64,000 nt of DNA from assembly GCA_049605255.1 (NCBI GenBank), contig JBMYUJ010000002.1, positions 9,791-73,790 on the forward strand. Reading direction: 5' to 3'. The notes below the pieces were generated by a model. That model saw only the letters and a program-made list of their open reading frames with translations, did not search any database and had not been told where the DNA came from. A program made the translations under genes and the position numbers. Positions 6,017 to 35,988 of this stretch are shown piece by piece; the first letter of the stretch is position 1; each line of letters starts with the position of its first letter. This DNA comes from Magnetospiraceae bacterium. Lineage in GTDB: Bacteria; Pseudomonadota; Alphaproteobacteria; Rhodospirillales; JBMYUJ01.

Positions 6017-7588
6017 TTAACGAACGAGGTCGTAGTTGTAGTCCGTGGTACCCATGCCCCGGGTATCATCATCGAGCCGTTCCAGGACCGCATTCACCAA
6101 GGTGGTGAGGATGTGCATGGCACCCTCATAGCCCATGGTGGTGTGGCGGTGCAGGTGGTGACGGTCGAAGATGGGGAACCCGATACGGATCAGGGGAACC
6201 TCAAACTCTTTACCCTTGTACAAGGTATCACGCTGGATGAACTTGCCGTAGGAGTTGCCAATCATGAAGTCCGGCTTATCGGTGAAGACCAGCGAGCGCA
6301 TGTGCCACAGGTCCTTGCCGATATGCACGGTGGAGTTCGCGCCGTAGGGAGAATCCGCCAGGATCTTCTCCATCGCCTTTTTCCACCGCTTGTTGGCATG
6401 GTTGCACAGGATGTGGGTCGGTTCCGCACCCAGTTCGAGCAGGAACTTGGTCATGCCCATCACGAAGTCGGCATCGCCCCACAGGGCGTATTTCTTGCCG
6501 TGCAACCAGGCATGGGAGTCGGTCATCATGTCGACCAGACGGCCCCGTTCGATCTCCAAGGATTTGGAAACCGGCTTGCCGGTGAGTTCGGAGACCTTCA
6601 TGAGGAAGGCATCGGTGTATTCCAGCCCCATGGGGATGGCGATATCGCTGGCTTCCTGTTTCCAGGTGTTTTTAATGTACTTGCGGGTTTTCACAAGCTG
6701 CCAGGGTTGCAGGAGCAGGGTGTCGGCCGCATTCGGCGCGTCCTTCACCTCGTCTTGCGTGGTGCCGCCAGCATACATGCGATATTCGCCGTCGGCGGGG
6801 GTGTCCAGCACCTCGGTGGGATCGGACAGGAAGGAGAAATCAACATCCATGTCTTTCAGCATGCGCTGAATGACCCGGAAATTGCCGAGATAGGTTTCGA
6901 AGCCCGGCACGATATTGATCTTGCCGTTGCTGCCCACTTCCTTGTCTTCCATGTGGTTCAGGGTGAAGTAACGAATCACCCCTTCGAACATGTTGTCCCA
7001 ACCGGTGGTGTGGCTACCAACGAAGCTGGGGGTGTGGGCAAAGGGAACCGCGTAATCCTCGGGGACATGACCTTCCTTCTTCGAGTTGGCGATGAAGGCA
7101 TTCAGGTCATCACCGATGACTTCCGCCATGCAGGTGGTGGAAACGGCGATCATGTCCGGCTTGTACAGGGCCTTGGCGTTGGCCAGACCATCGAACATGT
7201 TCTTTTGTCCACCGAACACCGCGGCATCTTCGATCATGGAATCGGAGACACAGGCGATCGGTTCTTTGAAGTGACGATTGAAGTAGGTCCGGAAGTAGGC
7301 AACGCAACCCTGAGAACCGTGAACGTAGGGCAGAGTCTTTTCAAAGCCCAGGGCACACAACACCGCACCCAAAGGCTGACACGCCTTCGCCGGGTTAACG
7401 GTCAGCGCTTCGCGCTGGAAGTTGATATCCTGGTATTCTTTGGTGGTGGTCCACTCAAAGACCTCATCAATCTTTTCGGCATCATGGGCCTCTTCGAATT
7501 CGGCCCGCTTCTTACCGAGGGAATCCTTGTAATCCTCATCCCGGAACAAGGGAAAGCTCGGCTTGATGTTATCAACGACTTGACTCAT
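6017..7588 (-). CDS. nifK: Nitrogenase MoFe protein beta chain
   Basis: MSQVVDNIKPSFPLFRDEDYK..LTVNPAKACQPLGAVLCALGFEKTLPYVHGSQGCVAYFR matches NifK. Confidence 0.98.
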   Translation of the reverse strand: MSQVVDNIKPSFPLFRDEDYKDSLGKKRAEFEEAHDAEKIDEVFEWTTTKEYQDINFQREALTVNPAKACQPLGAVLCALGFEKTLPYVHGSQGCVAYFRTYFNRHFKEPIACVSDSMIEDAAVFGGQKNMFDGLANAKALYKPDMIAVSTTCMAEVIGDDLNAFIANSKKEGHVPEDYAVPFAHTPSFVGSHTTGWDNMFEGVIRYFTLNHMEDKEVGSNGKINIVPGFETYLGNFRVIQRMLKDMDVDFSFLSDPTEVLDTPADGEYRMYAGGTTQDEVKDAPNAADTLLLQPWQLVKTRKYIKNTWKQEASDIAIPMGLEYTDAFLMKVSELTGKPVSKSLEIERGRLVDMMTDSHAWLHGKKYALWGDADFVMGMTKFLLELGAEPTHILCNHANKRWKKAMEKILADSPYGANSTVHIGKDLWHMRSLVFTDKPDFMIGNSYGKFIQRDTLYKGKEFEVPLIRIGFPIFDRHHLHRHTTMGYEGAMHILTTLVNAVLERLDDDTRGMGTTDYNYDLVR

Positions 7589-7673
7589 TTCTTCTTCCTC
7601 CTCCCGCGCCACTAATCCGTGGACGAACGGGTCGGGTGAAACAGAACAGCCTTGGGATCAAGAACCGAAGTTC

Positions 7674-9155
7674 TTATTCTCCGGCGGCAGCGACAGAGGT
7701 TTCGGCGTCATCCGCGGCTTTCCACGGCGGGGTCAGCTTTTTCCAGCACGGGTTATTCAGGGTCATGTCCATATCCCGGGCGAAGATGGCGAAGCCGTCA
7801 TAGCCGTGATACGGGCCGGAATAATCCCAGGAGTGCATTTGCCGGAAGGGAACGCCCATCTTCTGGAAGATGTACTTTTCCTTGATACCGGAACCGATGA
7901 GGTCGGGTTTGACCTTCTTGACGAACTCTTCGAACTCATAGCCCGTGACGTCGTCATAGATCAGGGTCGCGTTGCCCATTTCCTTCATGGTACGGTCGTA
8001 ATCATCGTTATGGGCGAATTCATAGCCCGTGCCGACCACTTCCATGCCCAGATCCTCGTAGGCGCCGATCACGTGGCGCGGCCGCAGACCACCCACATAA
8101 AGCATGACCCGCTTGCCTTCCAGACGCGGCCGATACTTGTCGATAACCGCCTGGTATTCGGCTTTGTACTTAGCAATCACTTCCTCGCACTTGGCTTGGA
8201 TGGTCTCGTCGAAGAACGCGGCGATCTTGCGCAGGGATTCTTCGATTTTGGTGGGACCGAAGAAGTTGTATTCCATCCAAGGAATACCGTACTTCTCTTC
8301 CATGTGCCGGGAGATGTAGTTCATGGACCGGTAGCAGTGCAGCAGGTTCAGCTTCGCTTTCGGAGTGTTTTCCATTTCCGACAGCGTGCCATCACCAGAC
8401 CATTGCGCGATCACCCGCAGGCCCATTTCCTCGAGCAGGATACGCGAAGACCAGGCGTCACCACCGATGTTGTAATCACCGATGATGGTGACGTCATAAG
8501 GGGTGGTTTGGAAGGAGGTGTCGTTATCCCGGTTGCTCAGCACCCAGTCGCGCACGGAATCGTTGGCGATGTGGTGACCGAGGGATTGGGACACACCGCG
8601 GAACCCTTCGCAGCGCACCGGCACGACCGGCTTGTTGTATTCCTTGTTCTTGACCTTGGACACGGCCTCGATATCGTCACCGATCAGGCCGATGGGGCAT
8701 TCGGATTGCACCGTGATGCCCTTGTTCAAGGGGAACAGGGATTCGATTTCGTCGATCAGCTTGGACAGCTTCTTGTCGCCACCGAACACAATGTCCTTCT
8801 CTTGGAAGTCAGAGGTGAAGTTCATGGTGCCGAACGTATTCACGCCCGTGGTGCCCACATAGTAGTTGCGACGACCCGCGCGGGAATATTGACCGCAGCC
8901 GACGGGACCGTGGGAGATGTGGATCATGTCCTTTACAGGACCCCACACCACACCCTTGGAACCGGCGTAGGCGCAACCACGAATGGTCATGACACCCGGC
9001 TGGGATTTCCGGTTGGACGTGATGCATTTCTTGGATTGTTCGAGTTCCGGATCATTGGCCGTCAGGTGCTTGGCGCGGTCCTTCTTGGCCTTTTCCGGGT
9101 AGACTTCCAGCACCTCTTGAATAAGGGCTTCTGTCTGTTCACGGTTCATGGTCAT
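7674..9155 (-). CDS. nifD: Nitrogenase MoFe protein alpha chain
   Basis: [64 protein letters not shown] matches NifD. Confidence 0.98.
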
Positions 9156-9203
9156 TGCCCGTTCTCCTCTAAAAGCAGGGGCATATCCGGTCTTCCCGAT
9201 GGG

Positions 9204-9241
9204 CCGTCAATTCCCGTTTGCCACAACAGGGGAAATGACGG
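9204..9241 (-). other. Stem-loop in the nifH-nifD intergenic region
   Basis: CCGTCAATTCCC..GGGAAATGACGG gives 12-nt arms with one mismatch and a 14-nt loop. No U-tract follows, so it is likely an mRNA processing or stability structure rather than a terminator. Confidence 0.4.
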
Positions 9242-9258
9242 CCGCGGGAAGGGTGATG

Positions 9259-10209
<951 letters not shown>

Positions 10210-10213
10210 CTAA

Positions 10214-10228
10214 GCAAGGGCCGTGCCA
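10214..10228 (-). promoter_or_regulatory. sigma54 promoter of nifHDK
   Basis: The reverse complement reads TGGCACGGCCCTTGC, an exact TGGCAC-N5-TTGC, about 65 nt upstream of the nifH ATG. Confidence 0.9.
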
Positions 10229-10327
10229 AGCGGCGATATCACCATTAACCTGTTGAAAAATATAAGAACCCAGGCAAATCAGGGATGCGACAATCGAGTG
10301 ACACATGCGACAAACCCACATTTTTTT

Positions 10328-10343
10328 TGTGGGAACCGTGACA
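10328..10343. promoter_or_regulatory. NifA UAS for nifH
   Basis: TGTGGGAACCGTGACA is an exact TGT-N10-ACA, about 100 bp upstream of the nifH -24 element. Its last A is the A of the draT ATG. Confidence 0.8.
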
Positions 10344-11158
10344 TGACGCCCAGTCTCCCGCGCTGGGCACGGCTGCCCATTAACCGCTGTAACCTGCCCT
10401 CTGTGATCCTGGGAGGCTTGGCCTTTCAGGAACAGCCCAGCGTCTTGGAAATTGATTGCGTCCGCCCGCTTCATGAGGAGCTGTTCGCTATGTTGCGGGC
10501 CCTGCAAACCCATGACGCGCGCGCTGAACGGTTTATGGATTACATGACCGTCCATTTCATGTTGCATGAGCTGGAAGAAGCCGGGCTGGGCCCCCGGGTG
10601 CCCGGATCGCGGGCCAATGCGGATTATTTGCGGATGATGCGCGGCTGGCTTTTTGATAGCGATGGGCGGGAAGGCGCTGTTTTGAAAGGCTGGGTGGAAA
10701 GCCGCTTCGGGCTCCTGCCCCGGTATCATGGCGGCGCGATGAAGGATGTGGGCGAAGCGCCCTATCAACGCTATATCACCCAGCGGTCGGCCGGTTTCTA
10801 TAATACCAATGCCCTCGAAGGGCAGCTCGACCTGCTCTATACCTATTGCCAGTATGAATTGGCGCAAGGGGGACCGGCGGCGCGGCGTATTACCCTGCAT
10901 CGCGGCACCAACGGTCTGGAAGAATACGATATCCTGACCCGTCATTCCCGGCGGGAGGCCGATGTCCTCTTAAATAACCTGAATTCCTTTACCCTGGATC
11001 GCGATAAGGCCGGGGAATTCGGCGATCTGATCCTCACCATCCAGGTACCCGCGCCGAAGATCTTTTTCTATAGCGACCTCTTGCCCGGCCGCCTGCATGG
11101 CGAACAGGAATATGTGGTCATCGGCGGCGTCTACCGCGCCGATATCCGTTACGACTGA
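10343..11158 (+). CDS. draT: NAD+:dinitrogenase-reductase ADP-ribosyltransferase
   Basis: The 271-aa MTPSLPRWARLPINRCNLPS..NADYLRMMRGWLFDSDGREGAVLKGWVESRFGL..LHRGTNG..NSFTLDRDKAGEFG..YVVIGG matches my recollection of DraT. It is divergent from nifH, as in other diazotrophs. Confidence 0.9.
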   Translation: MTPSLPRWARLPINRCNLPSVILGGLAFQEQPSVLEIDCVRPLHEELFAMLRALQTHDARAERFMDYMTVHFMLHELEEAGLGPRVPGSRANADYLRMMRGWLFDSDGREGAVLKGWVESRFGLLPRYHGGAMKDVGEAPYQRYITQRSAGFYNTNALEGQLDLLYTYCQYELAQGGPAARRITLHRGTNGLEEYDILTRHSRREADVLLNNLNSFTLDRDKAGEFGDLILTIQVPAPKIFFYSDLLPGRLHGEQEYVVIGGVYRADIRYD

Positions 11159-11236
11159 CACGTTTTTTTGGCGGGTTTGAGACAAAATACGTAGTCAATC
11201 CAGTTTAGACCGGCGCAAATCCGCGGATTTCCGCCC

Positions 11237-11251
11237 TGGTACGAAATTTGC
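11237..11251 (+). promoter_or_regulatory. Candidate sigma54 promoter for the SIR2-like/hemerythrin pair
   Basis: TGGTACGAAATTTGC has GG and GC at the canonical -24/-12 spacing (TGGYAC-N5-TTGC). It lies 46 nt upstream of ATG 11297. I saw no exact TGT-N10-ACA upstream. Confidence 0.6.
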
Positions 11252-11296
11252 TCCCTCCTCCAACAACATGCCACCTTTGAAAAAGGACGAGAGAGA

Positions 11297-12136
11297 ATGA
11301 CTGGGTTCGACGATCTATTGGCCGGTGTTTCCGCCGGTACCATTATCCCCTATCTTGGCCCCGGCGTGCTTGCCGATGTGACCGAGGTCGGCGGCGACGC
11401 CCCGATCCCCGCCAATAGCGATGATCTGATTCTGGCCATCAATGGCGGCAAGCCCATGGCGCCACGTCTGATGTATGAATTTCCCCGCGCTGCCATGGAT
11501 CTGGAACTGAAAAAGGGGCGGAACTTTCTATCGCGCACCCTGAACGAAATCTTTGGTGAACGGCAATGGACCCGGGCGCGGGTGCATGATTGGCTGGCGG
11601 CGGTCAAACCACCCTATGTAATCGACATCAACCGGGATACCCAACTAATCGATTCCTATTCGGAAACCCCCCATACCCTGGTGCGGGGCATCGCCCGTGT
11701 AGGCGGCACCGATTACCGGTTCCTAATCCATGCCTATGACGGCAGCAGCTACACGGAAATCGACCAGGAAGCGGTGGACCCCCGCTTGCCGATCCTGTTC
11801 AAACCCATGGGATCGCCAACGCCGACACCGAATTATATCGCCTCGGATGCGGATTATGTGGATTACATCACCGAGTTGATGGGCGGCTTCGCCATTCCCA
11901 CCTTCATGAAGGACTACCGGCTGGAAAAACAATATCTGTTCCTGGGCATGCGTTTTACCCGGGATACGGAGCGCATGGTCATGTCGGATATCATCTATGG
12001 TGCCAACGCGCCCGCGGGCTATGCCTTGATCCCCGACCCCACGCCGAAGGAGCTGCGCTATTGCGCGCATAAGGGGATTGAAGTGATCCGGGGCGATTAC
12101 GGCAATCTACTATCCACCGTGAGGGCGGCCTCATGA
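11297..12136 (+). CDS. SIR2-like (SIR2_2/ThsA-type fold) protein, divergent active site
   Basis: The motif order fits SIR2_2: IIPYLGPGV (GAGxS-like), PPYVIDINRDTQLI (TTNYD-like), ILFKPMGSP (KLHGS-like with His replaced by Met), SDADYVDY, YLFLGMRFTRD (FLGYSxxD-like). This is pattern recognition only, with no HMM run. Confidence 0.6.
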   Translation: MTGFDDLLAGVSAGTIIPYLGPGVLADVTEVGGDAPIPANSDDLILAINGGKPMAPRLMYEFPRAAMDLELKKGRNFLSRTLNEIFGERQWTRARVHDWLAAVKPPYVIDINRDTQLIDSYSETPHTLVRGIARVGGTDYRFLIHAYDGSSYTEIDQEAVDPRLPILFKPMGSPTPTPNYIASDADYVDYITELMGGFAIPTFMKDYRLEKQYLFLGMRFTRDTERMVMSDIIYGANAPAGYALIPDPTPKELRYCAHKGIEVIRGDYGNLLSTVRAAS

Positions 12137-12531
12137 GTAAATGGAACCCGTCGGAACACGCCCTGGGTCACGCCGATATGGATGCCACTCATGAAGAGTT
12201 TCTAGACCTGGTAACCCAGGCGCAGCAGGCCACCAACGAGGCGTTTCCCGCCGCGTTCAAAGCGCTGATGGCCCATACGCAGGCGCATTTCGCCAACGAG
12301 GAACGGCTGATGGAAGAGTCCGGTTTCCCCGCCTTTGGGGAACATCGGGAGGACCATCGCCGGGTCTTGGGCGACATGACCCAACTGGCCAGCCGCGTGG
12401 AGGCCGGACGGATCGCCTTCGCCCGGGCTTATTTGCGGGATCGGATTTTGGAATGGTTCACCCAGCATCTGGGCACCATGGATAGCGCCCTCGCCTTTCA
12501 TCTGAAACTCGCGGAAAAACGCTCGGCATAA
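12133..12531 (+). CDS. Bacteriohemerythrin-like protein
   Basis: MDATHEEF, HTQAHFANEE, FGEHREDHRRV and WFTQHLGTMDSAL form hemerythrin His/Glu/Asp iron-ligand motifs. The start shares an ATGA overlap with the SIR2-like stop. Confidence 0.85.
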   Translation: MSKWNPSEHALGHADMDATHEEFLDLVTQAQQATNEAFPAAFKALMAHTQAHFANEERLMEESGFPAFGEHREDHRRVLGDMTQLASRVEAGRIAFARAYLRDRILEWFTQHLGTMDSALAFHLKLAEKRSA

Positions 12532-12538
12532 TCGCGCG

Positions 12539-12590
12539 CTAAACTGTCACGCCGACCGGCAGATCTGCCTAAATTGTCACGCCCACCGGC
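12539..12590. repeat. Imperfect 22-bp direct repeat duplicating the 3' end of draG
   Basis: CTAAACTGTCACGCCGACCGGC (12539-12560) and CTAAATTGTCACGCCCACCGGC (12569-12590) match at 20/22. The second copy encodes the draG C-terminus PVGVTI-stop, and the first would read PVGVTV-stop. Confidence 0.8.
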
Positions 12591-13486
12591 GCGCGGGCCA
12601 GGAGAAGCCTGGCCTGTTCGATGCACTGAATTCCGATCTTTGGATCCAGGGCAGCCACCCAGTTCTTGGGAATGCCCTCCACGCCCCAGAGGGCGCCCGC
12701 CAGCATACCGGCGATGGCCCCCGTCGTGTCCGCATCGCCGCCCCGGTTCACCACGTCGATCAAGATCTCGGAAAAGCCGTCCTTATCACGGAGCGCCTGA
12801 AACACGGCGCGCAGGGTATCCACGATAAAGCCAGACGGGTTTTTTTCGCGCTTTCCGACAAAGGAAAATTCGGGAGACTTTGCGGCGAAACCCTCGGCCA
12901 TCTCGCGCAGATCGGCAAGGGACGCGTTCCCCGCCACGGCCGCTTGCACCATGTCGACAATACAATATGTCCCCGCATCGGAGAGGGCATTATTGTGGGT
13001 AATATGGGATTGCATCTCCACGGCCAGACGGACCTGTTCGGGCGCCGCGCCCAGGGTCGCCAATGCCACGGGCAAAACCCGCATGCAGGCCCCATTGCCG
13101 CCGTCATATTCGTTTTCGGGGACCCGGGTTTCATCGGTTTGCCGGTAGCGCACGATGCCGCGTCGGACCGTATTGCCCATATCCACCGGTTTGCTGCGCA
13201 TCCAGGCGCTGAAGGCCTCGGCAATGGCCCGCCCATCTACCGCCCCGTTGTCCAAAATGGACTGGCCGAGATAGAGGCTCATTTCGGTATCGTCGGTGAT
13301 CTGCCCAGGTTGCAACCGCAGCCAGCCACCGCCGATGATATTCCTGTGAACTCTGTATTGATCGGCGATTTCGCGCGGGGTCATGAATTCGACCGTGGCC
13401 CCCAGGGCATCGCCCACCGCCAACCCCAGATAGGCGCCAATGGCCCGATTTTCCAAGTCAGTCTTCGGGTCCGAAACAATAGTCAT
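12569..13486 (-). CDS. draG: ADP-ribosyl-[dinitrogen reductase] glycohydrolase
   Basis: RAIGAYLGLAVGDALGATVEFMTPREIADQY..GGGWLRLQPGQITDDTEMSL..GGDADTTGAIAGMLAGALWG closely matches R. rubrum DraG as I recall it. Start 13486 overlaps the nifQ 3' end by 29 nt. Confidence 0.93.
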   Translation of the reverse strand: MTIVSDPKTDLENRAIGAYLGLAVGDALGATVEFMTPREIADQYRVHRNIIGGGWLRLQPGQITDDTEMSLYLGQSILDNGAVDGRAIAEAFSAWMRSKPVDMGNTVRRGIVRYRQTDETRVPENEYDGGNGACMRVLPVALATLGAAPEQVRLAVEMQSHITHNNALSDAGTYCIVDMVQAAVAGNASLADLREMAEGFAAKSPEFSFVGKREKNPSGFIVDTLRAVFQALRDKDGFSEILIDVVNRGGDADTTGAIAGMLAGALWGVEGIPKNWVAALDPKIGIQCIEQARLLLARAPVGVTI

Positions 13487-14051
13487 AATCGACGCAGGTC
13501 TCGCAGGTGGGAGACCGGCAGATGAACACGCCATGCGCCTCGCACAACTGTTTGTAGAGGAACTTTTTCCATTTCATGTTCTTCCGGTTGCGCCGCCCCA
13601 ATCGGGGGAAATTATACTCGATCATACGGGTCAGGTCAGCCCGCGCCCACAGGCCCAGGTCTTGCCAGAGGTGATCAGACCCCATGCAGCCCGCACAAAT
13701 CAACTCCGCGATCCAAAATTCCGCCGGATCCCGCTTTGCCCGATGGGCCAACAGCAAAGACCGAAGATCATCAAGTTCTTCCATCCGTTCCAACGGACGC
13801 GGCAACGGGCCACCAGGAGCGGCGGAAAAACGGGCGCCGGGAAAAGCATGGCGCAGCATACGCCGGAACTGCCCCGCGGGCAGGCCCATATAGCCCCGTA
13901 ACATGCCCTCGCCCAGGGACCAAGACGCGATCATCTGGGCCATGAATCGGTCATTGGGCACGCCGCGCCCCCGGGCCAAAAGATCGGCGGCCACGGCCCG
14001 GCGGGCATCCGCTGGGCCGTGGTTCCGTAGGCTTTGTGTAACGACAGACAT
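13458..14051 (-). CDS. nifQ: NifQ (Mo processing for FeMo-co)
   Basis: The C-terminal KWKKFLYKQLCEAHGVFICRSPTCETCVDYDYC carries the Cx4Cx2Cx5C NifQ signature. Start 14051 lies 8 nt after the upstream stop. Confidence 0.88.
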   Translation of the reverse strand: MSVVTQSLRNHGPADARRAVAADLLARGRGVPNDRFMAQMIASWSLGEGMLRGYMGLPAGQFRRMLRHAFPGARFSAAPGGPLPRPLERMEELDDLRSLLLAHRAKRDPAEFWIAELICAGCMGSDHLWQDLGLWARADLTRMIEYNFPRLGRRNRKNMKWKKFLYKQLCEAHGVFICRSPTCETCVDYDYCFGPED

Positions 14052-14775: not shown

Positions 14776-16041
14776 TCAACCGAGGGATGCCAGGTCGATT
14801 TCCCGCGGCTTTAAAAGACCGCAAAGATGTTCGGCGACGGCACGGCCGAAACGCTCGCACTCTCCAAGCTCCGCTTGAGACGGTGCTAACTTCAGGCGCA
14901 TTCCGGAAACCGGAACCCGCATTTTTAGTCCCCGCAGTCTGGCCTCTATCATGTCCACGGCTTCGCCGGTCCAGCCGTAGGAGCCAAACGCCGCGCCGAG
15001 TTTTCCCTGTGTCTTGATCATGCCCAGCGAGGACAGCAGGTCCCAGACCGGCTTGGCCGCATCGCCATTGATAGTGGGGCTCCCGAAAATCAGGCCATCG
15101 GCTTCTTCCACCAGATCCACAAAGGGCTGGGGGTCGCCCCCCGCCAGATCATAGAGGGAGACGCGCACGCCGGGGATTTGCTCCGCCCCGCGCCGCACCG
15201 ATTGAGCCATGGTCGCCGTGCTGCCATAGGCACTGATATAGAAAATCAACAGGCTTTTTTCCGCTGCGCCCACTTCGCTTTTCAAGCTGGGGCGGGATAG
15301 CTCCCGATAGCGGCGGATATAGTCTCTCGGACGGTCCCGCAGGATCGGGCCATGGGCTGGCGCGACCAGGGCGGGCGACAGGGGTTCGATCAGATCCAGC
15401 GCCTGGTTCACATACTCTTTGAACGGGCGCATGATGTGGGAATAGTAATATTCAAAGGAGAACCGGAAATCCCCGGCCATATCGTTAAACAGGCGGTCGT
15501 CGCAAAAATGGCACCCGAACACATCGCCGGAGAACAGTATTTTATCTTCTTCCAGATAGGTGCATTGGGTATCCGGCCAATGCAGGTAGGGGGTGTTCAA
15601 GAACCGTAAGGTACGCCCGCCAATGGACACCGAATCCCCCGTCGCCACCGCGGTGAACGGGAACTCTTGCAGGTCGGGCTTCAACAAGGCCTTCAGCATG
15701 TTTGGCGCCCGGCGGGAGATGAACACCTGCGCTTGCGGCGCCCGGCGCATCAACTCCGGCAGCGCGCCGGTATGGTCTGGCTCCAAATGGTTGAGGACAA
15801 TTACCTTGATCTCGTCATATCGGGCGACGGATTCCAGGCGCTTGAAAAACGTGTCGGCGAATTCTTGCTTCACCGTATCGACGATGGCGACTCCGTCTTC
15901 CCCGCGAATCAGATACGCGTTATAGGAGGTGCCATTGGCGGTCCGAAGGATGATGTCAAAGTTACGCAAGTCTGGGTCGAACGCGCCGGCCCAGTACACC
16001 TCATTGCCAATGGAAACCGCGCCATCGCCGACAGAAATCAT
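14776..16041 (-). CDS. Flavodiiron protein (FprA-type O2/NO reductase: metallo-beta-lactamase plus flavodoxin domains)
   Basis: NHLEPDHTG (HxExDH di-iron motif) is followed by a C-terminal flavodoxin-like LLIFYISAYGSTATMA..GSPTINGD. The start shares an ATGA overlap with the upstream gene. Confidence 0.85.
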   Translation of the reverse strand: MISVGDGAVSIGNEVYWAGAFDPDLRNFDIILRTANGTSYNAYLIRGEDGVAIVDTVKQEFADTFFKRLESVARYDEIKVIVLNHLEPDHTGALPELMRRAPQAQVFISRRAPNMLKALLKPDLQEFPFTAVATGDSVSIGGRTLRFLNTPYLHWPDTQCTYLEEDKILFSGDVFGCHFCDDRLFNDMAGDFRFSFEYYYSHIMRPFKEYVNQALDLIEPLSPALVAPAHGPILRDRPRDYIRRYRELSRPSLKSEVGAAEKSLLIFYISAYGSTATMAQSVRRGAEQIPGVRVSLYDLAGGDPQPFVDLVEEADGLIFGSPTINGDAAKPVWDLLSSLGMIKTQGKLGAAFGSYGWTGEAVDMIEARLRGLKMRVPVSGMRLKLAPSQAELGECERFGRAVAEHLCGLLKPREIDLASLG

Positions 16042-20308: not shown

Positions 20309-21895
20309 TCAGGAAACCCGGTCGTCGGCAACCCGGGTCGAAAGGACAATGCGCACCACACAGCCCAACACGCCGGAATCCTCGATGGTGATTCCGCCGC
20401 CTTGGTCGGTGGCGAGTTGCTGGGCCAGGGTCAATCCCATGCCGCCATGGCCTTGACCGTTGCGCCAACCACAAAAGAACGGTTCAAACACCTTACGGCG
20501 CACTTCCGGGGGAATGCCGGGCCCGGTATCACGAACCTCTACCTCTACCGCGCTATCCGACTGCGACCGTGTCAGAACCTGAATTTCCCGCGTCGAGCCG
20601 CCCCCTTCGCTGACAGCCATCACCGCATTATCCAAAACATTCTTGATCAAAGACCGCAGCGCCGTCACATTCCCCGGAACCGACGCCAAAACCGTTGTCG
20701 GCTGCCAATCCACCGTGGTGCCGGTCGCCAAGAACTGTTCCGTCGATACAGAAAGCACGTCTCGTATAACTTCATTCACGTTCACCGGTTCCGTTGCGGC
20801 GGGGGCTGCCGCTGGCATGGCCGCTTCCAAACGTTCCAGGGTTTCCCGGCTGGACCGAACCACATCATTCAGCGCTTCCAACAAGGGGGTATGCTGGTCG
20901 CCTTGGCGTTCCAGCATGGTGACCGCCGCATTCACAAGGTTGAGCGGCCCTTGCAACTGATAAATGGAAGCGCCGATGATTTCCCGGATGCTGGCCACTC
21001 TCTGCTGTTCCGCCATCAAGGCCCGCACCATGCTGGTGCGAGACTCCTCGAACCGGCGACGTTGCGGCGTGATGTCGTTGCAGACCAAGAGCATGCGGTT
21101 CAACGCACTGCCGCGAAAGAAATGGTCGGCATCCAACTCCTCTTCATGGACCCAGGTACCAGAACAGGCAAACCACCGCTCCTCGCGGGCCTTCAAGCTG
21201 ACGTCGATATTGTGGAAATCCCGGCGGATTGCGGCAATTTCCGCGAAGGAAAGCCCCAATGCCTCCTCCACTGCCGCCAAGACTTCTACGGCCGGTTCCA
21301 AATCCAGGTCAGTCATCAGCACCTTGTAGGCATGGTTATCCAATTCCACCCGGCCCTCTTCATCCACCATGGCAATCGCCACGGGGGCGACGTCGATCAC
21401 TGATTCCAGCAGCGCTTTCTTGTTCTTCAGTTCGGTTTCCAGCTGGTGCAGCTGGGTCACATCCCGGTGCAGGCCCATGTAATGGGTAACCTCCCCATCG
21501 GGCCCCCGCACGGGGATCACCGTCAGCTCCGCCACATAGCGCTCGCCGCTTTTCTTGCGGTTGATCAGGGTGCCGGTCCAGGCCCGCCCCGCGGTGATGG
21601 TGCCCCACATCTCTTCATAGACCTTGGCCGGCGTCGCCTTGAAGGAGAGGACGGATTCGTTCTTTCCCACCAATTCTTCCGGCAGGTACCCGGTGACCTG
21701 TTGAAAGGCCTCGTTGGCATAAAGAATTCGGGCTTTGCGGTCGGTGATGGAGATCGCCACCGAACTCTGCGCGACGGCCTCGATAAAAACCTGCACAGGG
21801 AGGCCCGCCACATTGTTGGCATGTAGATCCCGCAGGATGGTGATAATCTCCTCGGGTGTTCCCGTCGGTGGATTGGCGATAAAATCCTGGAACAT
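20309..21895 (-). CDS. nifL: NifL, redox/N-status anti-activator of NifA
   Basis: PAS region VAISITDRKARILYANEAFQQVTGYLPEELVGKNESVLS..YLGLHRDVT and C-terminal VFEPFF..GMGL parallel A. vinelandii NifL. Start 21895 (MFQDF) has a GGAGGA RBS, and an upstream in-frame ATG at 21937 is also possible. Confidence 0.9.
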   Translation of the reverse strand: MFQDFIANPPTGTPEEIITILRDLHANNVAGLPVQVFIEAVAQSSVAISITDRKARILYANEAFQQVTGYLPEELVGKNESVLSFKATPAKVYEEMWGTITAGRAWTGTLINRKKSGERYVAELTVIPVRGPDGEVTHYMGLHRDVTQLHQLETELKNKKALLESVIDVAPVAIAMVDEEGRVELDNHAYKVLMTDLDLEPAVEVLAAVEEALGLSFAEIAAIRRDFHNIDVSLKAREERWFACSGTWVHEEELDADHFFRGSALNRMLLVCNDITPQRRRFEESRTSMVRALMAEQQRVASIREIIGASIYQLQGPLNLVNAAVTMLERQGDQHTPLLEALNDVVRSSRETLERLEAAMPAAAPAATEPVNVNEVIRDVLSVSTEQFLATGTTVDWQPTTVLASVPGNVTALRSLIKNVLDNAVMAVSEGGGSTREIQVLTRSQSDSAVEVEVRDTGPGIPPEVRRKVFEPFFCGWRNGQGHGGMGLTLAQQLATDQGGGITIEDSGVLGCVVRIVLSTRVADDRVS

Positions 21896-21965
21896 GGTCC
21901 TCCACTTCGCTAATTGCGGCCCTGTGCGGCGTTGCAATGTGCGTGCTGCACTTGCGAAATGTTAA

Positions 21966-21980
21966 GCAAGAAACGTGCCT
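21966..21980 (-). promoter_or_regulatory. Candidate sigma54 promoter of nifLA
   Basis: The reverse complement reads AGGCACGTTTCTTGC. GG-N10-GC spacing is correct, with one mismatch to TGGCAC-N5-TTGC. Confidence 0.6.
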
Positions 21981-22023
21981 TTAAAACCTATGAGCCGCTA
22001 TCGAAGGGGGCTCGTCTGTTTTT

Positions 22024-22039
22024 TGTCAGAAACGCGACA
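22024..22039. promoter_or_regulatory. TGT-N10-ACA UAS in the nifL/rnfA divergent region
   Basis: TGTCAGAAACGCGACA is an exact NifA-type motif. Confidence 0.65.
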
Positions 22040-22063
22040 TGGCGAAACCTGACTGATCGTGGA

Positions 22064-22079
22064 TGTCCGATACTGCACA
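22064..22079. promoter_or_regulatory. Second TGT-N10-ACA UAS in the nifL/rnfA divergent region
   Basis: TGTCCGATACTGCACA is an exact NifA-type motif, 40 bp from the first, which is roughly four helical turns. Confidence 0.6.
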
Positions 22080-22188
22080 TGCACAGATTTGCTCAGACTA
22101 GAGGATTTCTGTCTTAATTTTAAGCAAAACCTTTGAGCGCCCGGCCTTTTGCTGAAAAATTGAACAAAAATTACCAGATTCGGCTTAT

Positions 22189-22203
22189 TGGTATGGTTGA
22201 TGC
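22189..22203 (+). promoter_or_regulatory. Candidate sigma54 promoter of the rnf operon
   Basis: TGGTATGGTTGATGC has GG and GC at canonical spacing. It lies about 50 nt upstream of the rnfA ATG and 110-165 bp downstream of the two UAS. Confidence 0.6.
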
Positions 22204-22253
22204 ATTGGGGAGTCCACGGCTCTTAACCTTCAGGTGGGGAAGTGGATTCGGCA

Positions 22254-22835
22254 ATGACCGCCTATTTGCTGCTGATACTCGGGACAGTCCTGGTCAACAA
22301 CGTGGTTTTGGTCAAGTTTCTCGGCCTTTGCCCGTTCATGGGCGTGTCCAACAAGGTGGATACGGCGCTCGGCATGGGCTTTGCCACCACGTTCGTGCTG
22401 ACACTGTCCGCGGCGGCCAGTTGGGCGATTGAATTCTTTATCCTGGCGCCGCTGGGTATCGAGTTCCTCAGAATCCTCACCTTTATTTTAGTGATCGCCG
22501 CCGTGGTACAGTTTACCGAAATGTCGGTCCGGAAGATGTCGCCAGCACTATATCAGGTATTGGGCATCTTCCTGCCGCTGATCACCACCAACTGCGCCGT
22601 GCTCGGCGTTGCCCTGTTGAACTTGCAAGAGGAGCACAGCTTTGTGCAAAGCCTGCTCTACGGTTTCGGGTCAGCGGTCGGCTTCACCCTTGTCATGGTG
22701 ATATTCGCTGGCCTGCGCGAGCGCTTGGCGCTGGCCCAGGTCCCTGGCGCCTTCGCCGGCGCCCCCATTGGTTTTGTTGTTGCTGGTTTGTTGTCCCTCG
22801 CCTTCATGGGGTTTGCGGGACTCCCGGTAAACTAG
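22254..22835 (+). CDS. rnfA: Rnf electron-transport complex subunit A
   Basis: [32 protein letters not shown] is near-identical in pattern to RnfA/RsxA N-termini. Confidence 0.95.
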
Positions 22836-22848
22836 GAGGAATTCGACC

Positions 22849-23379
22849 GTGTTGCCTGCCATCGGAAGCTTGACCGTTTTAGGACTTTGCTTGGGCGCCC
22901 TGTTGGGGGTCGCGGCCCGCTATCTGCGGGTGGAAGGCAATCCCCTCGCTATGGAAATCGAGGGCATGCTCCCCGGTACCAATTGCGGGCAATGCGGCTA
23001 CCCCGGCTGCACCACGGCGGCGGAGGTTTTGGCCCAGGGCGAAGCGCCGGTGACCCTCTGCCCGCCGGGCGGCCGCGGCCTCGCCTCGGAACTGGCGGGC
23101 AAACTCGGCGTTACCGCCAATCTTTCCGACATGGAAGACAAAGCCCCCGCCGTCGCCTTCATCAACGAAGCGCTCTGCGTGGGCTGCACCAAATGTTTCA
23201 AGCGCTGCCCCACCGATGCCATCGTCGGCAGCTCCCGGCAGATGCATTCCGTGATCAGCGATGCCTGTACCGGCTGCGAACAATGCGTCGACATCTGCCC
23301 CACCGAATGCGTCACCATGCGGCCGATCCCGGCGACCTTGCAAAATTGGTATTGGCCGAAACCGGCGATCGCGGCCTGA
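22849..23379 (+). CDS. rnfB: Rnf complex subunit B (Fe-S)
   Basis: An N-terminal TM helix is followed by LPGTNCGQCGYPGCTTAAE and two CxxCxxCxxxCP clusters. The start codon is GTG. Confidence 0.93.
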   Translation: MLPAIGSLTVLGLCLGALLGVAARYLRVEGNPLAMEIEGMLPGTNCGQCGYPGCTTAAEVLAQGEAPVTLCPPGGRGLASELAGKLGVTANLSDMEDKAPAVAFINEALCVGCTKCFKRCPTDAIVGSSRQMHSVISDACTGCEQCVDICPTECVTMRPIPATLQNWYWPKPAIAA

Positions 23380-23389
23380 GGATTCCGTA

Positions 23390-24889
23390 ATGAAACTCTT
23401 TCGATTCAAAGGCGGCATCCATCCGAACGATAAAAAGGATCTGACCGCCGACTGCGCTATCGAGGCCCTGCCACTGCCAAAACTGTTGCGTATTCCCTTG
23501 CAGCAGCATATCGGTGCCCCGGCCGAACCCATCGTGGCGAAGGGCGATTGGGTCAAGAAGGGTGATTTGCTGGCCGTTGGCCAAGGCATGGTCAGCGCCA
23601 CCATTCATGCCCCCACCTCGGGGCGGATCGTGGGCCTCGGGCGCTATCAGGCGCCCCACGCGTCGGGCCTGCCGGGCCGCACCCTGACCCTGAAGCCCGA
23701 TGGCAAGGATGAATGGGGGGAAACCCTTCCCCCCATGGATCCCTACGCAGTGGACCCATCGGAGATCGCCAAACGGGTTGCCGCCTGCGGTGTGGTCGGC
23801 ATGGGCGGCGCCACCTTCCCCTCGGCGGTCAAACTGAACCTGCGGGCGCGCTACGAGTTGCACACCCTGCTAATCAATGGGGCAGAATGCGAGCCCTATC
23901 TCACCTGCGATGATCGGCTGATGCGCGAACATACCGCAGAGGTGCTAGATGGCATCCTGATCATGGCGCAGGCCCTGGGCACGCCCCGGGTGATCATTGC
24001 CGTCGAAGCCAATAAGCCAAGAGCCATCGCTGCTCTGCGGGATGCGGTCGGCAAACGGGCTGATGCCAGCGACGCAGAGGTCACGGTCGCCAAGGTGCCC
24101 ACCCAATATCCCATGGGATCGGAAAAGCATCTGGTGCGCACCGTGACCGGGCTGGAAACCCCCGCCCGCGCCCTGACCGCCGATCTGGGTATCGTGGTCC
24201 ATAACACGGCCACGGCCTATGCGGTTCATCAGGCGGTGCGTCTCGGTCGCCCGCTGATCGATCGCATCGTCACCGTAAGCGGCGAGGCGGTGGTTCGGCG
24301 CGGGAATTTCCGTGTGCTCATCGGTACTACGGTGGCCGATCTGGTCGCCCATTGCGGTGGGTTCGATGGCGAACCGGCCAAGCTCTTGTTGGGAGGCCCC
24401 ATGATGGGCCAACCCCTGCCCGATACCAAAGCGCCCATCGTTAAAGGCTCCAACGGGGTGTTGGCCCTTTCGGAAAAAGAAGCGGCGCCCCGGCAGGCCG
24501 GTGCCTGCATCCGTTGCGCCAGCTGCGTGTCGGCCTGCCCCTGCGGACTGCTACCCCTGGAGATGGCCTCGCGCATCCGCGCCGAGGAATTGGATAGCGC
24601 CGTGGATATCGGCTTGATGGACTGTGTTTCCTGCGGATCATGCGCCTATATCTGCCCGTCCAACATCCCCTTGGTGCAGTATTTTAATTATGCCAAGGGC
24701 CGGTTGACGGAAACCCAGCGCGCCAAACACAAGCAGGAGGAAACCAAACGCCTCGCCACCGCGCGGACCGAGCGCATGGAGAAAATCGCCGCCGAAAAAC
24801 GCGCCGCCATGGAAAAACGCAAGGCGGAACAGCGGGCCAAGAAAGCGGCGGCCGAGGCGGCGGCGCAGAAAGAAAGCGTTTCCGCATGA
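23390..24889 (+). CDS. rnfC: Rnf complex subunit C (NADH-binding, Fe-S)
   Basis: MKLFRFKGGIHPNDKKD..GMGGATFPS..CIRCASCVSACP..CVSCGSCAYICP matches RnfC. The tail is Lys/Ala-rich. Confidence 0.95.
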   Translation: MKLFRFKGGIHPNDKKDLTADCAIEALPLPKLLRIPLQQHIGAPAEPIVAKGDWVKKGDLLAVGQGMVSATIHAPTSGRIVGLGRYQAPHASGLPGRTLTLKPDGKDEWGETLPPMDPYAVDPSEIAKRVAACGVVGMGGATFPSAVKLNLRARYELHTLLINGAECEPYLTCDDRLMREHTAEVLDGILIMAQALGTPRVIIAVEANKPRAIAALRDAVGKRADASDAEVTVAKVPTQYPMGSEKHLVRTVTGLETPARALTADLGIVVHNTATAYAVHQAVRLGRPLIDRIVTVSGEAVVRRGNFRVLIGTTVADLVAHCGGFDGEPAKLLLGGPMMGQPLPDTKAPIVKGSNGVLALSEKEAAPRQAGACIRCASCVSACPCGLLPLEMASRIRAEELDSAVDIGLMDCVSCGSCAYICPSNIPLVQYFNYAKGRLTETQRAKHKQEETKRLATARTERMEKIAAEKRAAMEKRKAEQRAKKAAAEAAAQKESVSA

Positions 24890-25995
24890 CCCAGCCCTCG
24901 ATCATCGCCGCGCCTTTCGCCCATCAAGGCAATACGGTCAGCCGGGCCATGGTCTTGGTGATGGTGGCCCTGGTGCCCGTCACCCTGTTCGGGCTCTATC
25001 AATTCGGCTGGCCCGCCATCAACCTGCTCCTGGTCACGGTGGCGTCGGCCATGCTGTTCGAGGCGCTGTGCCTAAAATTGATGGGGAAACCCGTTTCCGA
25101 CGGCCTGGCCGATGGGTCGGCGGCCCTGTCTGGTTGGCTGCTGGCATTGACCCTGCCGCCTTGGGCGCCTTGGTGGATCGGTACCGTGGGGGCGTTTCTG
25201 GCCATTGTGGTGGCCAAGCAGATATTTGGGGGATTGGGACAAAACCTGTTCAACCCGGCCATGGTGGCCCGCGTGGCGCTGCTGATTTCCTTCCCCGTGG
25301 AAATGACCCGCTGGGTGGCGCCATTGCCCCTGGGCAGCAATGGAGCGCCGGATTTCCTGGCGGGGCTAGGCATCACTTTCGGGCTAAATCACGGTTTCGA
25401 TGCGGTTTCCAGCGCCTCTCTCCTGGGGGCCTTCAAGACCCAATTGAGCACGGGCGCCAGCGCCAGCGAGGCGCTGAGCACCACCTTCGGCCTGCTCGAT
25501 CTTGGCCTCGGCACGGTGGCAGGCAGCCTGGGGGAAACCGCCGCGGGTCTGATCCTGGCGGGCGGCTTGCTGCTGTTGGCGACCCGCATCATCACCTGGC
25601 ATATCCCGGTGGCCATGCTGGCGACCGTCGCGATCTTCTCCGGCGGCCTATACCTGCTGGACAGCGACCATTTCCTGAGCCCCGCCTATCATCTGCTGTC
25701 CGGCGCGACCCTTTTGGGGGCGTTCTTCATCGCTACCGATTATGTGACCTCGCCGGTCACCACCCGGGGGCAACTTCTGTTTGGCGCCGGTATTGGGCTT
25801 TTGGTGGTGGTGATCCGCACCTGGACCGGCTACCCGGAAGGCATGGCCTTCGCGGTGATGCTGATGAATGCCTGCGTGCCGCTGATCGACCGCTATACCC
25901 GGCCCCGCGTCTTTGGCCGCACCCGCACCGGTGATCCGATGGAATACAGCGCGCAACGCCTCGCCCGCGCCAGCGGGCGGAAGGAGGCGGAATGA
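24886..25995 (+). CDS. rnfD: Rnf complex subunit D
   Basis: Polytopic membrane protein with FIATDYVTSP and NPAMVAR motifs. The start shares an ATGA overlap with rnfC. Confidence 0.93.
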   Translation: MTQPSIIAAPFAHQGNTVSRAMVLVMVALVPVTLFGLYQFGWPAINLLLVTVASAMLFEALCLKLMGKPVSDGLADGSAALSGWLLALTLPPWAPWWIGTVGAFLAIVVAKQIFGGLGQNLFNPAMVARVALLISFPVEMTRWVAPLPLGSNGAPDFLAGLGITFGLNHGFDAVSSASLLGAFKTQLSTGASASEALSTTFGLLDLGLGTVAGSLGETAAGLILAGGLLLLATRIITWHIPVAMLATVAIFSGGLYLLDSDHFLSPAYHLLSGATLLGAFFIATDYVTSPVTTRGQLLFGAGIGLLVVVIRTWTGYPEGMAFAVMLMNACVPLIDRYTRPRVFGRTRTGDPMEYSAQRLARASGRKEAE

Positions 25996-26669
25996 CCGAG
26001 ACAGATAAAGACAAAGAGACGGAGACCCCAGCCCCCTCCCGCTTCGAACGGATCAAGGGAAATATGGTCTATCACGCGCTCATGCTCGGCGCCTTCGCCA
26101 TGGGCGCGGCGGCGATCCTGGGGGGCGGCGATCAGGCCACGGTCGAGGCCATTGCCGCCCGCTTCGCGGAAGATCTTACCGCCTCCCTCGCCCAGGTAGT
26201 GCCGGACGATATGTATGACAACGACCTGCTGGCCGATACCCTGACGATCACCGGCGACAAAGGGCCGGTGGTGGTGCATCGCGGCCGCAAGGAGGGCCGG
26301 ATTACCGCCTTCGCCTATCCCTCCATGGCCTTCGGCTATGGCGGCAAAATTCAGGTGATCATGGGGGTGGATGCCAGCGGAAAAATCCTCGGTGTGCGGG
26401 TGGTGCAGCATGCGGAAACCCCAGGGTTGGGGGATAAGATAGATATCGCCCGGGATACCTGGATCTTGAGCTTCGACGGTCGCTCCTTCGACACCCTCCC
26501 GGCGGATAAATGGGCGGTCAAGAAAGACGGCGGTGTGTTCGATCAATTCAGCGGCGCCACCATCACCCCCCGCGCCGTGGTCCGCGCGGTCAAGGAAGGC
26601 TTGGAATTCTTCCACGCCCATGAAGATGAGCTGCTCGGCGCATCCGGCGACCAGGAGATGGGATCATGA
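25992..26669 (+). CDS. rnfG: Rnf complex subunit G (FMN-binding)
   Basis: ETPGLGDKI and DQFSGATITPRAV, the latter containing the SGAT flavinylation motif. Confidence 0.92.
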   Translation: MTETDKDKETETPAPSRFERIKGNMVYHALMLGAFAMGAAAILGGGDQATVEAIAARFAEDLTASLAQVVPDDMYDNDLLADTLTITGDKGPVVVHRGRKEGRITAFAYPSMAFGYGGKIQVIMGVDASGKILGVRVVQHAETPGLGDKIDIARDTWILSFDGRSFDTLPADKWAVKKDGGVFDQFSGATITPRAVVRAVKEGLEFFHAHEDELLGASGDQEMGS

Positions 26670-27358
26670 GTGGAACCCCTTACAGCCATATCGTTCGCGA
26701 AGGCCTGTGGTCTAATAATGTGGTATTTTCCCAGATGTTGGCGCTTTGCCCGCTACTGGCGGTCACCAGCACCGCCACCAACGGTCTGGGCATGGGCCTC
26801 GCCACAACGGCGGTCATGGTGGCTTCCGGGTTGGCCGTTTCCCTCTTGCGCGGGCTGATCAGCCCCGAGGTCCGCATCCCCGCCTTTGTGTTGATCATCG
26901 CAACGCTGGTGACCTTGGTGGATATGGCGTTGAACGCCTGGCTGCATGAGCTTTACAAGGTTTTGGGCCTGTTCATTCCCCTGATCGTGACCAACTGCGC
27001 CATCCTGGGCCGGGCCGAGGCCTTTGCCTCCCGGCAGGACCCGCTGCGCGCGGCGACGGATGGATTCATGATGGGCGCGGGTTTCACCCTGGCCCTGGTC
27101 GTTTTAGGCGCGGTGCGGGAAGTGATCGGGTCCGGCACCCTGTTTTCCGGGGCGAGCCTGCTTCTGGGCGCGCATTTTTCCTTCATGGAGACGGTTTTGA
27201 TCCCGGAATATAAGGGATTCCTGCTTTTCATCCTGCCGCCGGGCGCCTTTTTGGTGCTGGGCTTCTTGCTGGCGGCGAAACGGCTTTTGGATCAGCGGAT
27301 CGAACAGCTCAAGGCCCGGCGCGCCGCCGCGGCCAAGGGCGTTCCCGCAGAGGCTTAG
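26666..27358 (+). CDS. rnfE: Rnf complex subunit E
   Basis: LWSNNVVFSQMLALCPLLAVTS..LGLFIPLIVTNCAILGRAEAFAS matches RnfE. Confidence 0.94.
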   Translation: MSGTPYSHIVREGLWSNNVVFSQMLALCPLLAVTSTATNGLGMGLATTAVMVASGLAVSLLRGLISPEVRIPAFVLIIATLVTLVDMALNAWLHELYKVLGLFIPLIVTNCAILGRAEAFASRQDPLRAATDGFMMGAGFTLALVVLGAVREVIGSGTLFSGASLLLGAHFSFMETVLIPEYKGFLLFILPPGAFLVLGFLLAAKRLLDQRIEQLKARRAAAAKGVPAEA

Positions 27359-27370
27359 GGGACGAAGACC

Positions 27371-28061: not shown

Positions 28062-28065
28062 GGCC

Positions 28066-29109: not shown

Positions 29110-29114
29110 GCGTC

Positions 29115-30364: not shown

Positions 30365-30384
30365 GGTCTTGCTTCCTTCTTCGC

Positions 30385-33061: not shown

Positions 33062-33069
33062 GGGTCTGC

Positions 33070-33904: not shown

Positions 33905-33908
33905 GGCC

Positions 33909-35847: not shown

Positions 35848-35890
35848 CGCGAAATCCTTCGGCATGAACACGCTCTCATGCCTTGGAACA

Positions 35891-35967: not shown

Positions 35968-35988
35968 TTGGCGGGATCGCAACGAAAA

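Follow-up and report, generated by a model that had tools for sequence, protein, structure and literature searches.

A candidate sigma54-dependent operon of a SIR2-like protein and a bacteriohemerythrin associated with nitrogenase gene clusters

Introduction

What is the role of a SIR2-like gene that lies between the two genes of the nitrogenase ADP-ribosylation switch? The question is raised by a 64,000-nucleotide stretch of DNA from a Magnetospiraceae bacterium (GenBank assembly GCA_049605255.1, contig JBMYUJ010000002.1, positions 9,791 to 73,790 of the forward strand; this whole stretch is referred to below as the window), in which draT and draG are separated by a two-gene unit. The first gene of the unit encodes a 279-amino-acid SIR2-like protein and the second a 132-amino-acid bacteriohemerythrin. 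An earlier interpretation made from the letters of the DNA (the sequence-only reading) had placed the pair in the position where draG normally follows draT, and had proposed that it forms an accessory layer linked to draT. Our analysis of promoter, gene neighborhoods, fold, and active-site residues gives a different answer. The unit is best described as a predicted sigma54-dependent bicistronic operon of the nitrogen-fixation regulon, and the pair appears from its gene neighborhoods to be a widespread accessory of nitrogenase clusters in general, not an add-on to DraT/DraG. Its first gene accompanies nitrogenase genes across several hundred or more species of Proteobacteria.

Results

Promoter and layout of the unit

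The sigma54 (-24/-12) element upstream of the SIR2-like gene (Table 1) reads TGGTAC-N5-TTGCT, in agreement with the consensus TGGCAC-N5-TTGCW (GG-N10-GC). The pattern TGGYAC-N5-TTGCW has 5 matches in the 64-kb window compared to 0.16 expected by chance, and the remaining four sites precede nifE, nifH, nifB, and nifV, the sigma54 site upstream of nifB being located at 18312. One more high-scoring site lies upstream of nifL, and every other strong site precedes a nif operon. The plus strand upstream of draT was found to be without a sigma54 site. The presence of such a site before the SIR2-like/hemerythrin pair, and its absence before draT, indicates that the pair is regulated separately from draT.

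Conservation of the element was examined in loci that carry an ortholog of the SIR2-like gene. A scan with one genome per species yielded at least 574 genomes with a relative; the 80 loci analyzed here are the best of these, and the Nif and Dra proteins encoded in the window served as queries against them. An element scoring at least 9/11 was found upstream of the ortholog in 64 of 79 loci, compared to 6 of 237 control windows, and was mostly positioned 55–68 nucleotides upstream of the ATG. The promoter proposed by the sequence-only reading is thus a real sigma54-type element that is conserved across the phylogeny.

The remaining details of the layout also agree with those proposed. The 279-residue open reading frame (ORF) begins 138 bp after the end of draT (11158), and the two genes of the pair are translationally coupled through an ATGA overlap at 12133–12136. 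Neither an intrinsic terminator nor a sigma70-like promoter was found around the unit, and an Rfam scan of the whole window yielded zero RNA families.

Linkage to nitrogenase genes

The protein database contains 4351 relatives of the SIR2-like protein. The top 120 are 64–72% identical to it, approximately 290 residues in length, and derived from Chromatiaceae, Sedimenticola, Thiodiazotropha, other sulfur-oxidizing symbionts, and Magnetovibrionaceae. In a library of 1.84 billion clusters, the family profile has only 397 matching representatives at E <= 1e-3. Conservation across proteobacterial classes is at the level of 65–70% identity.

Genes of the nif or dra type are located within 6 kb of the SIR2-like gene in 62 of the 80 loci. 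For the 18 loci without detected nif linkage, further queries with Nif proteins of the window gave no upstream nif genes, and the upstream ORFs of six of these loci were not nif-like by inspection alone. The immediate neighbor was determined in the 65 loci whose upstream sequence extends for 2.5 kb or more. In 16 of them the next gene upstream is draT, on the same strand; in 10 (e.g., Marinobacterium) the SIR2-like gene and nifH are adjacent and divergent, without an intervening draT; and in 11 (Chromatiaceae) the adjacent divergent gene is nifE, followed by nifN. The survey of gene neighborhoods thus upholds the linkage to nif genes but not the linkage to draT, which is found upstream in only these 16 loci, with nifH or nifEN there instead in 21.

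Downstream of the unit, a convergent draG that ends a nifB...nifQ string is present in 25 of 71 loci, and the window's exact layout is also found in Methylocystaceae and several gammaproteobacterial genomes. Because this split arrangement of draT and draG is common, the SIR2 gene does not replace draG.

A sister clade (clade B, the window type being clade A) is 27–30% identical to the window type, and was found on 72 records by tblastn against plasmids. Most of these records are rhizobial symbiosis plasmids, on which the clade B gene comes after nifB-fdxN-nifZ-nifT; one is a Methylococcus nif plasmid, in which a BolA gene comes next.

Domain and fold of the SIR2-like protein

The 279-residue protein matches PF13289 (SIR2_2) at 33.6 bits compared to a cutoff of 24.5, with the match limited to residues 155–264 (profile positions 30–141). 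PF02146, the classical sirtuin family, gave zero matches at E <= 1. The protein contains a single Cys (C256) and so is without the sirtuin zinc (Cys4) module. A classical sirtuin deacylase of the CobB type was ruled out on these two grounds. NCBIfam is without a model for the protein, and PADLOC gave zero matches to it at E <= 1. An identical sequence is present in NCBI under the name 'SIR2 family protein [Magnetospiraceae bacterium]'.

An AlphaFold (AF2) model based on 28 homologs had a predicted local distance difference test score (pLDDT) of 89.2 and a predicted template modeling score (pTM) of 0.89. The model contains a six-stranded Rossmann sheet, a helical subdomain, and an additional beta-hairpin at residues 126–147. 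When the model was compared to the PDB with Foldseek, the top matches were the SIR2 domains of DSR2 and KomC/HAM-SIR2, with E ~1e-8 and a template modeling (TM) score of ~0.6 over 273–300 aligned columns, covering almost the entire protein. The SIR2_2/ThsA-type fold had been proposed from five motifs (IIPYLGPGV, VIDINRDTQL, ILFKPMGSP, SDADYVDY, and YLFLGMRFTRD), all of which are present in the translation; the Pfam and structural checks both support this fold, as does the hhalign analysis below.

Active-site residues in the two clades

A profile of the 28 close homologs gave zero matches against PDB sequences, and the same low-diversity profile gave nothing meaningful against ThsA by hhalign. 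A family profile built from 50%-identity cluster representatives that span both clades aligned to ThsA (query sequence identical to PDB 6LHX) with a probability of 92.7% and E 4e-7. This alignment pairs KPMGS with KMHGD, placing M171 at the position of the catalytic His of ThsA (H152); it pairs DINRD with TTNYD, placing N112 at N112 and D114 at D114; and it pairs H97xxLA with H97xxLA of ThsA. The Pfam profile coordinates of both proteins also give M171 as the equivalent of H152, so that the Met noted earlier at the His of the catalytic HG motif is confirmed by two routes. Because the alignments, the model, and the structural matches agree, we consider the SIR2 fold, the retained Asn, and the His-to-Met change all to be real.

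The family, a compact SIR2_2-fold group that appears specific to nif clusters, has kept the motifs of the Rossmann fold and the nicotinamide adenine dinucleotide (NAD) pocket: GxG, the H97xxLA helix, D110-x-N112-x-D114, G172, D186-Y187, and G217. Among 120 database relatives in clade A, N112, D110, D114, G172, D186, H97, H126, and C256 are each found in 120/120, and N112 is found in 80/80 clade A loci. The His position itself is occupied by Met in 103, Leu in 15, His in 1, and Cys in 1 of the database relatives, and by Met in 61, Leu in 14, His in 3, Thr in 1, and Ala in 1 of the loci. The three His cases come from Marinobacterium zhoushanense, lacunae, and ramblicola (L008, L015, and L027), where KPHGAP occurs together with Asn112 and the canonical pair is thus complete; in other Marinobacterium species this position is Met or Leu. 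The three proteins appear to be natural revertant or ancestral forms.

In clade B, the His is kept in 119/120 and a Trp is found at the Asn position in 120/120, with a Tyr at the His position in a Rhizobium phaseoli/etli protein (L081:6929-7867). Based on these alignments, neither clade appears to have the canonical Asn+His pair, the losses being complementary apart from the three Marinobacterium exceptions. In NCBI and UniRef, the name 'SIR2 family NAD-dependent protein deacylase' is commonly given to clade B proteins, which is probably an over-annotation.

Because the His position of clade A drifts inside an otherwise frozen motif, the His side chain is arguably unused in this clade. The His-to-Ala and His-to-Asn mutant forms of DSR2 and KomC are taken to be catalytically inactive. 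PDB entry titles (8wyb, 9xvc) describe the SIR2 domains of such forms, DSR2(H171A) and KomC(H146N), complexed with NAD+ or NAD fragments, indicating that loss of the His is compatible with nucleotide binding.

Two observations concern the Cys residues of clade A. A variable C-terminal tail ending in -Gly-Cys is present in 34/80 homologs, the window protein being without the tail, and C256 is near-invariant across the 80 loci. The -Gly-Cys tail might be redox-active or metal-binding.

The hemerythrin and its coupling to the SIR2-like gene

The 132-residue protein scores 43.3 bits against PF01814, above the cutoff of 25.3, and 77 bits against TIGR02481, whose cutoff is 51.75; its score of 68.3 bits against the bacteriohemerythrin subfamily model NF033749 is below the cutoff of 84. 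Alignment to the Methylococcus protein 4XPW identified all seven Fe ligands (H20, H52, E56, H71, H75, H112, and D117). Its prior identification as a bacteriohemerythrin is therefore supported by both the domain match and an intact di-iron ligand set.

A hemerythrin gene lies 3' of the SIR2 gene on the same strand, at a distance of up to 2.5 kb, in 29 of 71 loci. The two genes overlap or are less than 30 bp apart in representatives of the Alpha- (Methylocystaceae, also with an ATGA overlap), Zeta-, and Gammaproteobacteria. SIR2-hemerythrin pairing is thus recurrent but not obligatory. Many gammaproteobacterial loci have as a third operon member a conserved Cys-rich ORF of about 75–85 residues, situated between the SIR2 and hemerythrin genes and absent from the window (L042:6871-7125, L044, L047, L060, L061, L063, L065, L069, and L080). 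Its consensus is M..F.PCQGK..CR.D...C.TCGR...EI..LR.L.DQLA.LA, and its weak similarity to DUF1289 (E 0.004–0.012) is below the Pfam cutoff. In loci with a gap of 200–260 bp between the SIR2 and hemerythrin genes, no separate sigma54 site was found in the gap, which is occupied by this small Cys-rich ORF. In a Mariprofundaceae metagenome-assembled genome (MAG) of the Zetaproteobacteria (L033:6001-9321), genes for the SIR2-like protein, hemerythrin, Fe/Mn superoxide dismutase, a rhodanese-ankyrin protein, monothiol glutaredoxin, and BolA follow one another on one strand behind a sigma54-like site. Genes around the pair share a theme of O2, reactive oxygen species, and Fe-S chemistry.

Context of the unit in the window

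The features of the unit and its flanks are collected in Table 1. The true start of draT is probably further downstream than the start of its ORF, because the DRAT domain begins only at residue 53. On the other side of the unit, draG closes a string of genes on the minus strand, which consists of nifB, fdxN, an ArsC/NifO-like gene, a flavodiiron protein gene, genes for two 2Fe-2S ferredoxins, nifQ, and draG.

Table 1. Position of the SIR2-like/hemerythrin unit and flanking features in the window.
Feature	Position	Strand	Remarks
nifK, nifD, nifH	6017-10149	minus	divergent from draT
draT ORF (context, outside the unit)	10223-11158	plus	PF07357, E 2e-96
Possible degenerate NifA upstream activator, TGG-N10-ACA	11169-11184	plus	one mismatch to TGT-N10-ACA; weak
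sigma54 (-24/-12) element TGGTACGAAATTTGCT	11237-11252	plus	60 nucleotides 5' of the ATG of the 279-residue ORF
SIR2_2-fold ORF, 279 residues (clade A)	11297-12136	plus	Asn112 and Asp114 kept, His replaced by Met171
Bacteriohemerythrin ORF, 132 residues	12133-12531	plus	ATG overlaps preceding TGA (ATGA)
draG (context, outside the unit), convergent	12569-13534	minus	TIGR02662, 400 bits (cutoff 337)

A 22-nucleotide direct repeat with a spacing of 30 nucleotides is present at 12539–12590. Its first copy (CTAAACTGTCACGCCGACCGGC) lies inside the 37-bp convergent spacer between the hemerythrin gene and draG, its second copy (CTAAATTGTCACGCCCACCGGC) is the 3' end of draG including the stop codon, and the palindrome GGCAGATCTGCC is situated between them. 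The repeat may have been left behind by a duplication or may serve as a binding site.

The flavodiiron-type protein (421 residues, 14776–16041, minus strand) contains ODP/metallo-beta-lactamase and flavodoxin domains. Many related loci have a homolog with 64–71% identity at the corresponding position, and the protein is likely an O2/NO-reducing protector encoded within the nif operon. Further along the window, the minus strand carries a NifL-type PAS/HATPase gene at 20309–21937 and an Azotobacter-like string nifV-cysE-nifW-nifZ-nifM-clpX at 36018–30385, in which nifW and nifZ are putative assignments; rnf genes within 20309–36018 were assigned by position and length only. The nearest relatives of the 279-residue protein are mostly from Gammaproteobacteria (up to 72% identity), with the closest named alphaproteobacterial relative at 66%. 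Because the contig is attributed to an alphaproteobacterial MAG, this suggests that the whole nif cluster of the Magnetospiraceae MAG may have been acquired laterally.

Discussion

SIR2 genes and hemerythrin have been mentioned in connection with nif clusters before. In Zymomonas mobilis, N2 fixation leads to up-regulation of ZMO1821, which was assumed to be a deacetylase, and acetylation of Nif proteins has been reported (PMC8600466); this organism has a SIR2 gene in its nif island and lacks both draT and draG (PMC8594446). In Rhodobacter capsulatus, Rcc03262, which adjoins NifT, was detected in the wild type, whereas it was not found in a strain deleted for nifA1 and nifA2 (PMC6925177). A SIR2_2 gene adjoins nifH in 23/25 Thalassolituus genomes, with draT detected in 18 (bioRxiv 10.64898/2026.08.28.747955), and in Thalassolituus haligoni a hemerythrin embedded in the nif cluster was labeled as O2 defense (PMC11290528). 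Nif-cluster SIR2 genes have also been published for Rhodovulum and Paenirhizobium. In the literature searched, we found no functional study of nif-cluster SIR2 genes and no paper combining draT, hemerythrin, and nifH; nor did we find the lost catalytic residues, the conserved sigma54 promoter, or a SIR2-hemerythrin operon mentioned. The module is therefore not wholly undescribed, as had been supposed, since its genes have been mentioned in passing, but it was never characterized.

We estimate a probability of about 0.5 that the unit is a nif-regulon accessory operon in which a non-canonical, nucleotide-binding SIR2-like protein has a protective or tuning role linked to O2 or redox state. Under such a mechanism, the operon would be made only when nitrogenase is made, through sigma54 and NifA. 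The SIR2-like protein, which probably binds nucleotide and appears to have lost canonical catalysis, would bind NAD+ or an ADP-ribose-type nucleotide without hydrolysis of the sirtuin/ThsA type, and would act by contacting a conserved partner protein related to nitrogenase. The role of the hemerythrin would be to bind, buffer, or sense O2, and the two proteins would together make up an O2/redox-related accessory of nitrogenase. We infer a binder rather than a canonical NAD+ glycohydrolase or deacylase because the His position drifts and because His-mutant DSR2 and KomC hold NAD+. The theme of O2 and redox chemistry is supported by the Fe superoxide dismutase/glutaredoxin/BolA operon of the Mariprofundaceae, by the flavodiiron gene of the window, and by the published reading of the Thalassolituus hemerythrin (PMC11290528).

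Several points weigh against this interpretation. The 80 loci are the closest relatives and not an unbiased sample. More than half of the loci lack the hemerythrin gene, indicating that the SIR2-like protein does not need it. The promoter is not preceded by an exact NifA upstream activator sequence, the only exact TGT-N10-ACA within 9900–12600 being located at 10328, between nifH and draT. For the unit in this organism, NifA dependence is presumed, with the absence of R. capsulatus Rcc03262 from the nifA1-nifA2 deletion strain as indirect evidence (PMC6925177). Family membership of Rcc03262 and ZMO1821 rests on annotation and on a nifT-SIR2 gene order that matches clade B; it stays inferred because neither the R. 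capsulatus nor the Z. mobilis protein was among the top 120 of the clade B protein search. In addition, the 65–70% identity across classes could fit a non-canonical enzyme equally well. A more specific proposal, that the proteins of both clades, with their complementary losses, are a hitherto unrecognized class of pseudo-sirtuins that regulate or protect nitrogenase, read an NAD+-derived or adenine-nucleotide signal (together with an O2 signal via hemerythrin where this is present), and bind a nitrogenase component directly, for example in conformational protection or activity tuning, is speculative and we consider it rather improbable.

The conservation of the family leads directly to the question of activity. 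Papers that name the protein a deacetylase presuppose an active enzyme. Such an enzyme, with its catalytic residues arranged in a non-canonical way and acting on nitrogenase or Nif proteins as a protein deacylase, an ADP-ribosyltransferase, or an NAD+ glycohydrolase, would account for the high conservation and for the invariant polar residues (E70, R75, H97, D110, N112, D114, H126, D184, D186, E193, R226, and C256), and it could draw on the His kept in 119/120 clade B proteins and on the reported acetylation of Z. mobilis Nif proteins (PMC8600466). We nevertheless regard it as unlikely, given the drift of the catalytic His position among Met, Leu, His, Thr, Ala, and Cys within an otherwise invariant motif, the Trp at the Asn position throughout the 120 clade B proteins, and the lack of a PF02146 match and of a sirtuin zinc module in a protein with a single Cys; the DSR2 and KomC forms deposited with NAD+ are likewise His-to-Ala/Asn mutants presumed inactive. 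Gene neighbors suggest a further alternative, a factor that would mature or assemble the nitrogenase metalloclusters or NifH/NifDK and have no connection with O2 or NAD signaling, the hemerythrin being an independent passenger. Clade B genes occur with nifB, fdxN, nifZ, and nifT, clade A genes lie by nifEN in Chromatiaceae, the Cys-rich DUF1289-like ORF and in places glutaredoxin and BolA genes are close by, and the -Gly-Cys end (34/80 homologs) and near-invariant C256 would suit such a function. The fold, however, gives no hint of metal-cluster binding, and in the window protein there is only one Cys and the -Gly-Cys tail is missing. To our knowledge, the SIR2-like family also lies outside the minimal or classical Azotobacter/Klebsiella nif gene sets, and we hold a maturation role to be improbable.

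The role suggested by the sequence-only reading, an accessory layer of the DraT/DraG switch that would sense NAD+ or ADP-ribose or control NifH modification in response to O2, fits the position of the gene directly after draT in the window and in 16/65 loci, the convergent draG downstream, and a SIR2 fold that implies an NAD-type ligand, NAD+ being the substrate of DraT. It does not fit the loci in which the gene is divergent from nifH without draT (10) or from nifEN (11), the sister-clade genes in rhizobial nifB-nifZ-nifT operons, the Z. mobilis nif-island SIR2 gene without draT or draG (PMC8594446), or the Thalassolituus genomes, where the SIR2_2 gene lies by nifH in 23/25 and draT was detected in only 18. 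The pair moreover has its own sigma54 promoter, whereas draT is without such a site. We consequently give this role little credence. An anti-phage effector of the Thoeris or DSR type, inserted in the nif cluster by chance, would explain why the best structural matches are the defense sirtuins DSR2 and KomC. With no PADLOC match, no sensor or partner domain, a missing catalytic His, and nif synteny and a sigma54 promoter conserved across classes, it is hardly tenable, and insertion of a defense system is effectively refuted by the conserved nif synteny.

Should the nucleotide-binding or O2-linked accessory role be correct, the operon could partly explain how nitrogenase is protected or tuned in aerobes other than Azotobacter and in microaerophiles, and would be worth considering as a component in the transfer of nif clusters to new hosts. 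Because neither clade has the canonical Asn+His pair, the label of NAD-dependent deacylase used in databases and papers is probably wrong.

Comparison with known systems

Canonical draT-draG(-draB) operons are found in Rhodospirillum rubrum and Azospirillum brasilense. As in these organisms, the window encodes DraT and DraG next to nifHDK, but its draT and draG are not co-transcribed, and the split layout recurs in loci of the Gamma-, Alpha-, and Betaproteobacteria.

The anti-phage SIR2_2 NAD+ glycohydrolases ThsA (Thoeris), DSR2, and KomC share PF13289, the fold, and the catalytic Asn with the window protein, as well as the collinear order of GxG, HxxLA, (T/D)xNxD, the xG(S/D) strand end, DY, and FxGxSF/RF. 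The window protein differs in having Met171 in place of their catalytic His (H152 in ThsA, H171 in DSR2, and H146 in KomC), in carrying the additional beta-hairpin, in being without a SLOG, sensor, or partner domain and without a PADLOC match, and in its location within a nif cluster behind a sigma54 promoter instead of in a defense island.

Published nif-cluster SIR2 proteins (ZMO1821, Rcc03262, and those of Thalassolituus and rhizobial symbiosis plasmids) resemble the window protein in their length of about 290 residues, their SIR2_2 assignment, their location within nif clusters, and their co-expression with nitrogenase, either NifA-dependent or induced by N2 fixation. The rhizobial-type clade is set apart from the window type by its low identity, by the Trp at the Asn position with the His usually kept, and by its place after nifZ-nifT, not draT or nifH, with no hemerythrin partner seen.

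The window hemerythrin shares with bacteriohemerythrins such as Methylococcus capsulatus McHr (PDB 4XPW/4XPX) and the DcrH domain a single four-helix domain of about 130 residues and a complete H-HxxxE-HxxxH-HxxxxD ligand set. It differs from them in that the similarity is weak (E ~1e-7) and in that its gene, behind a nif-type promoter, is joined to a SIR2-like gene by translational coupling.

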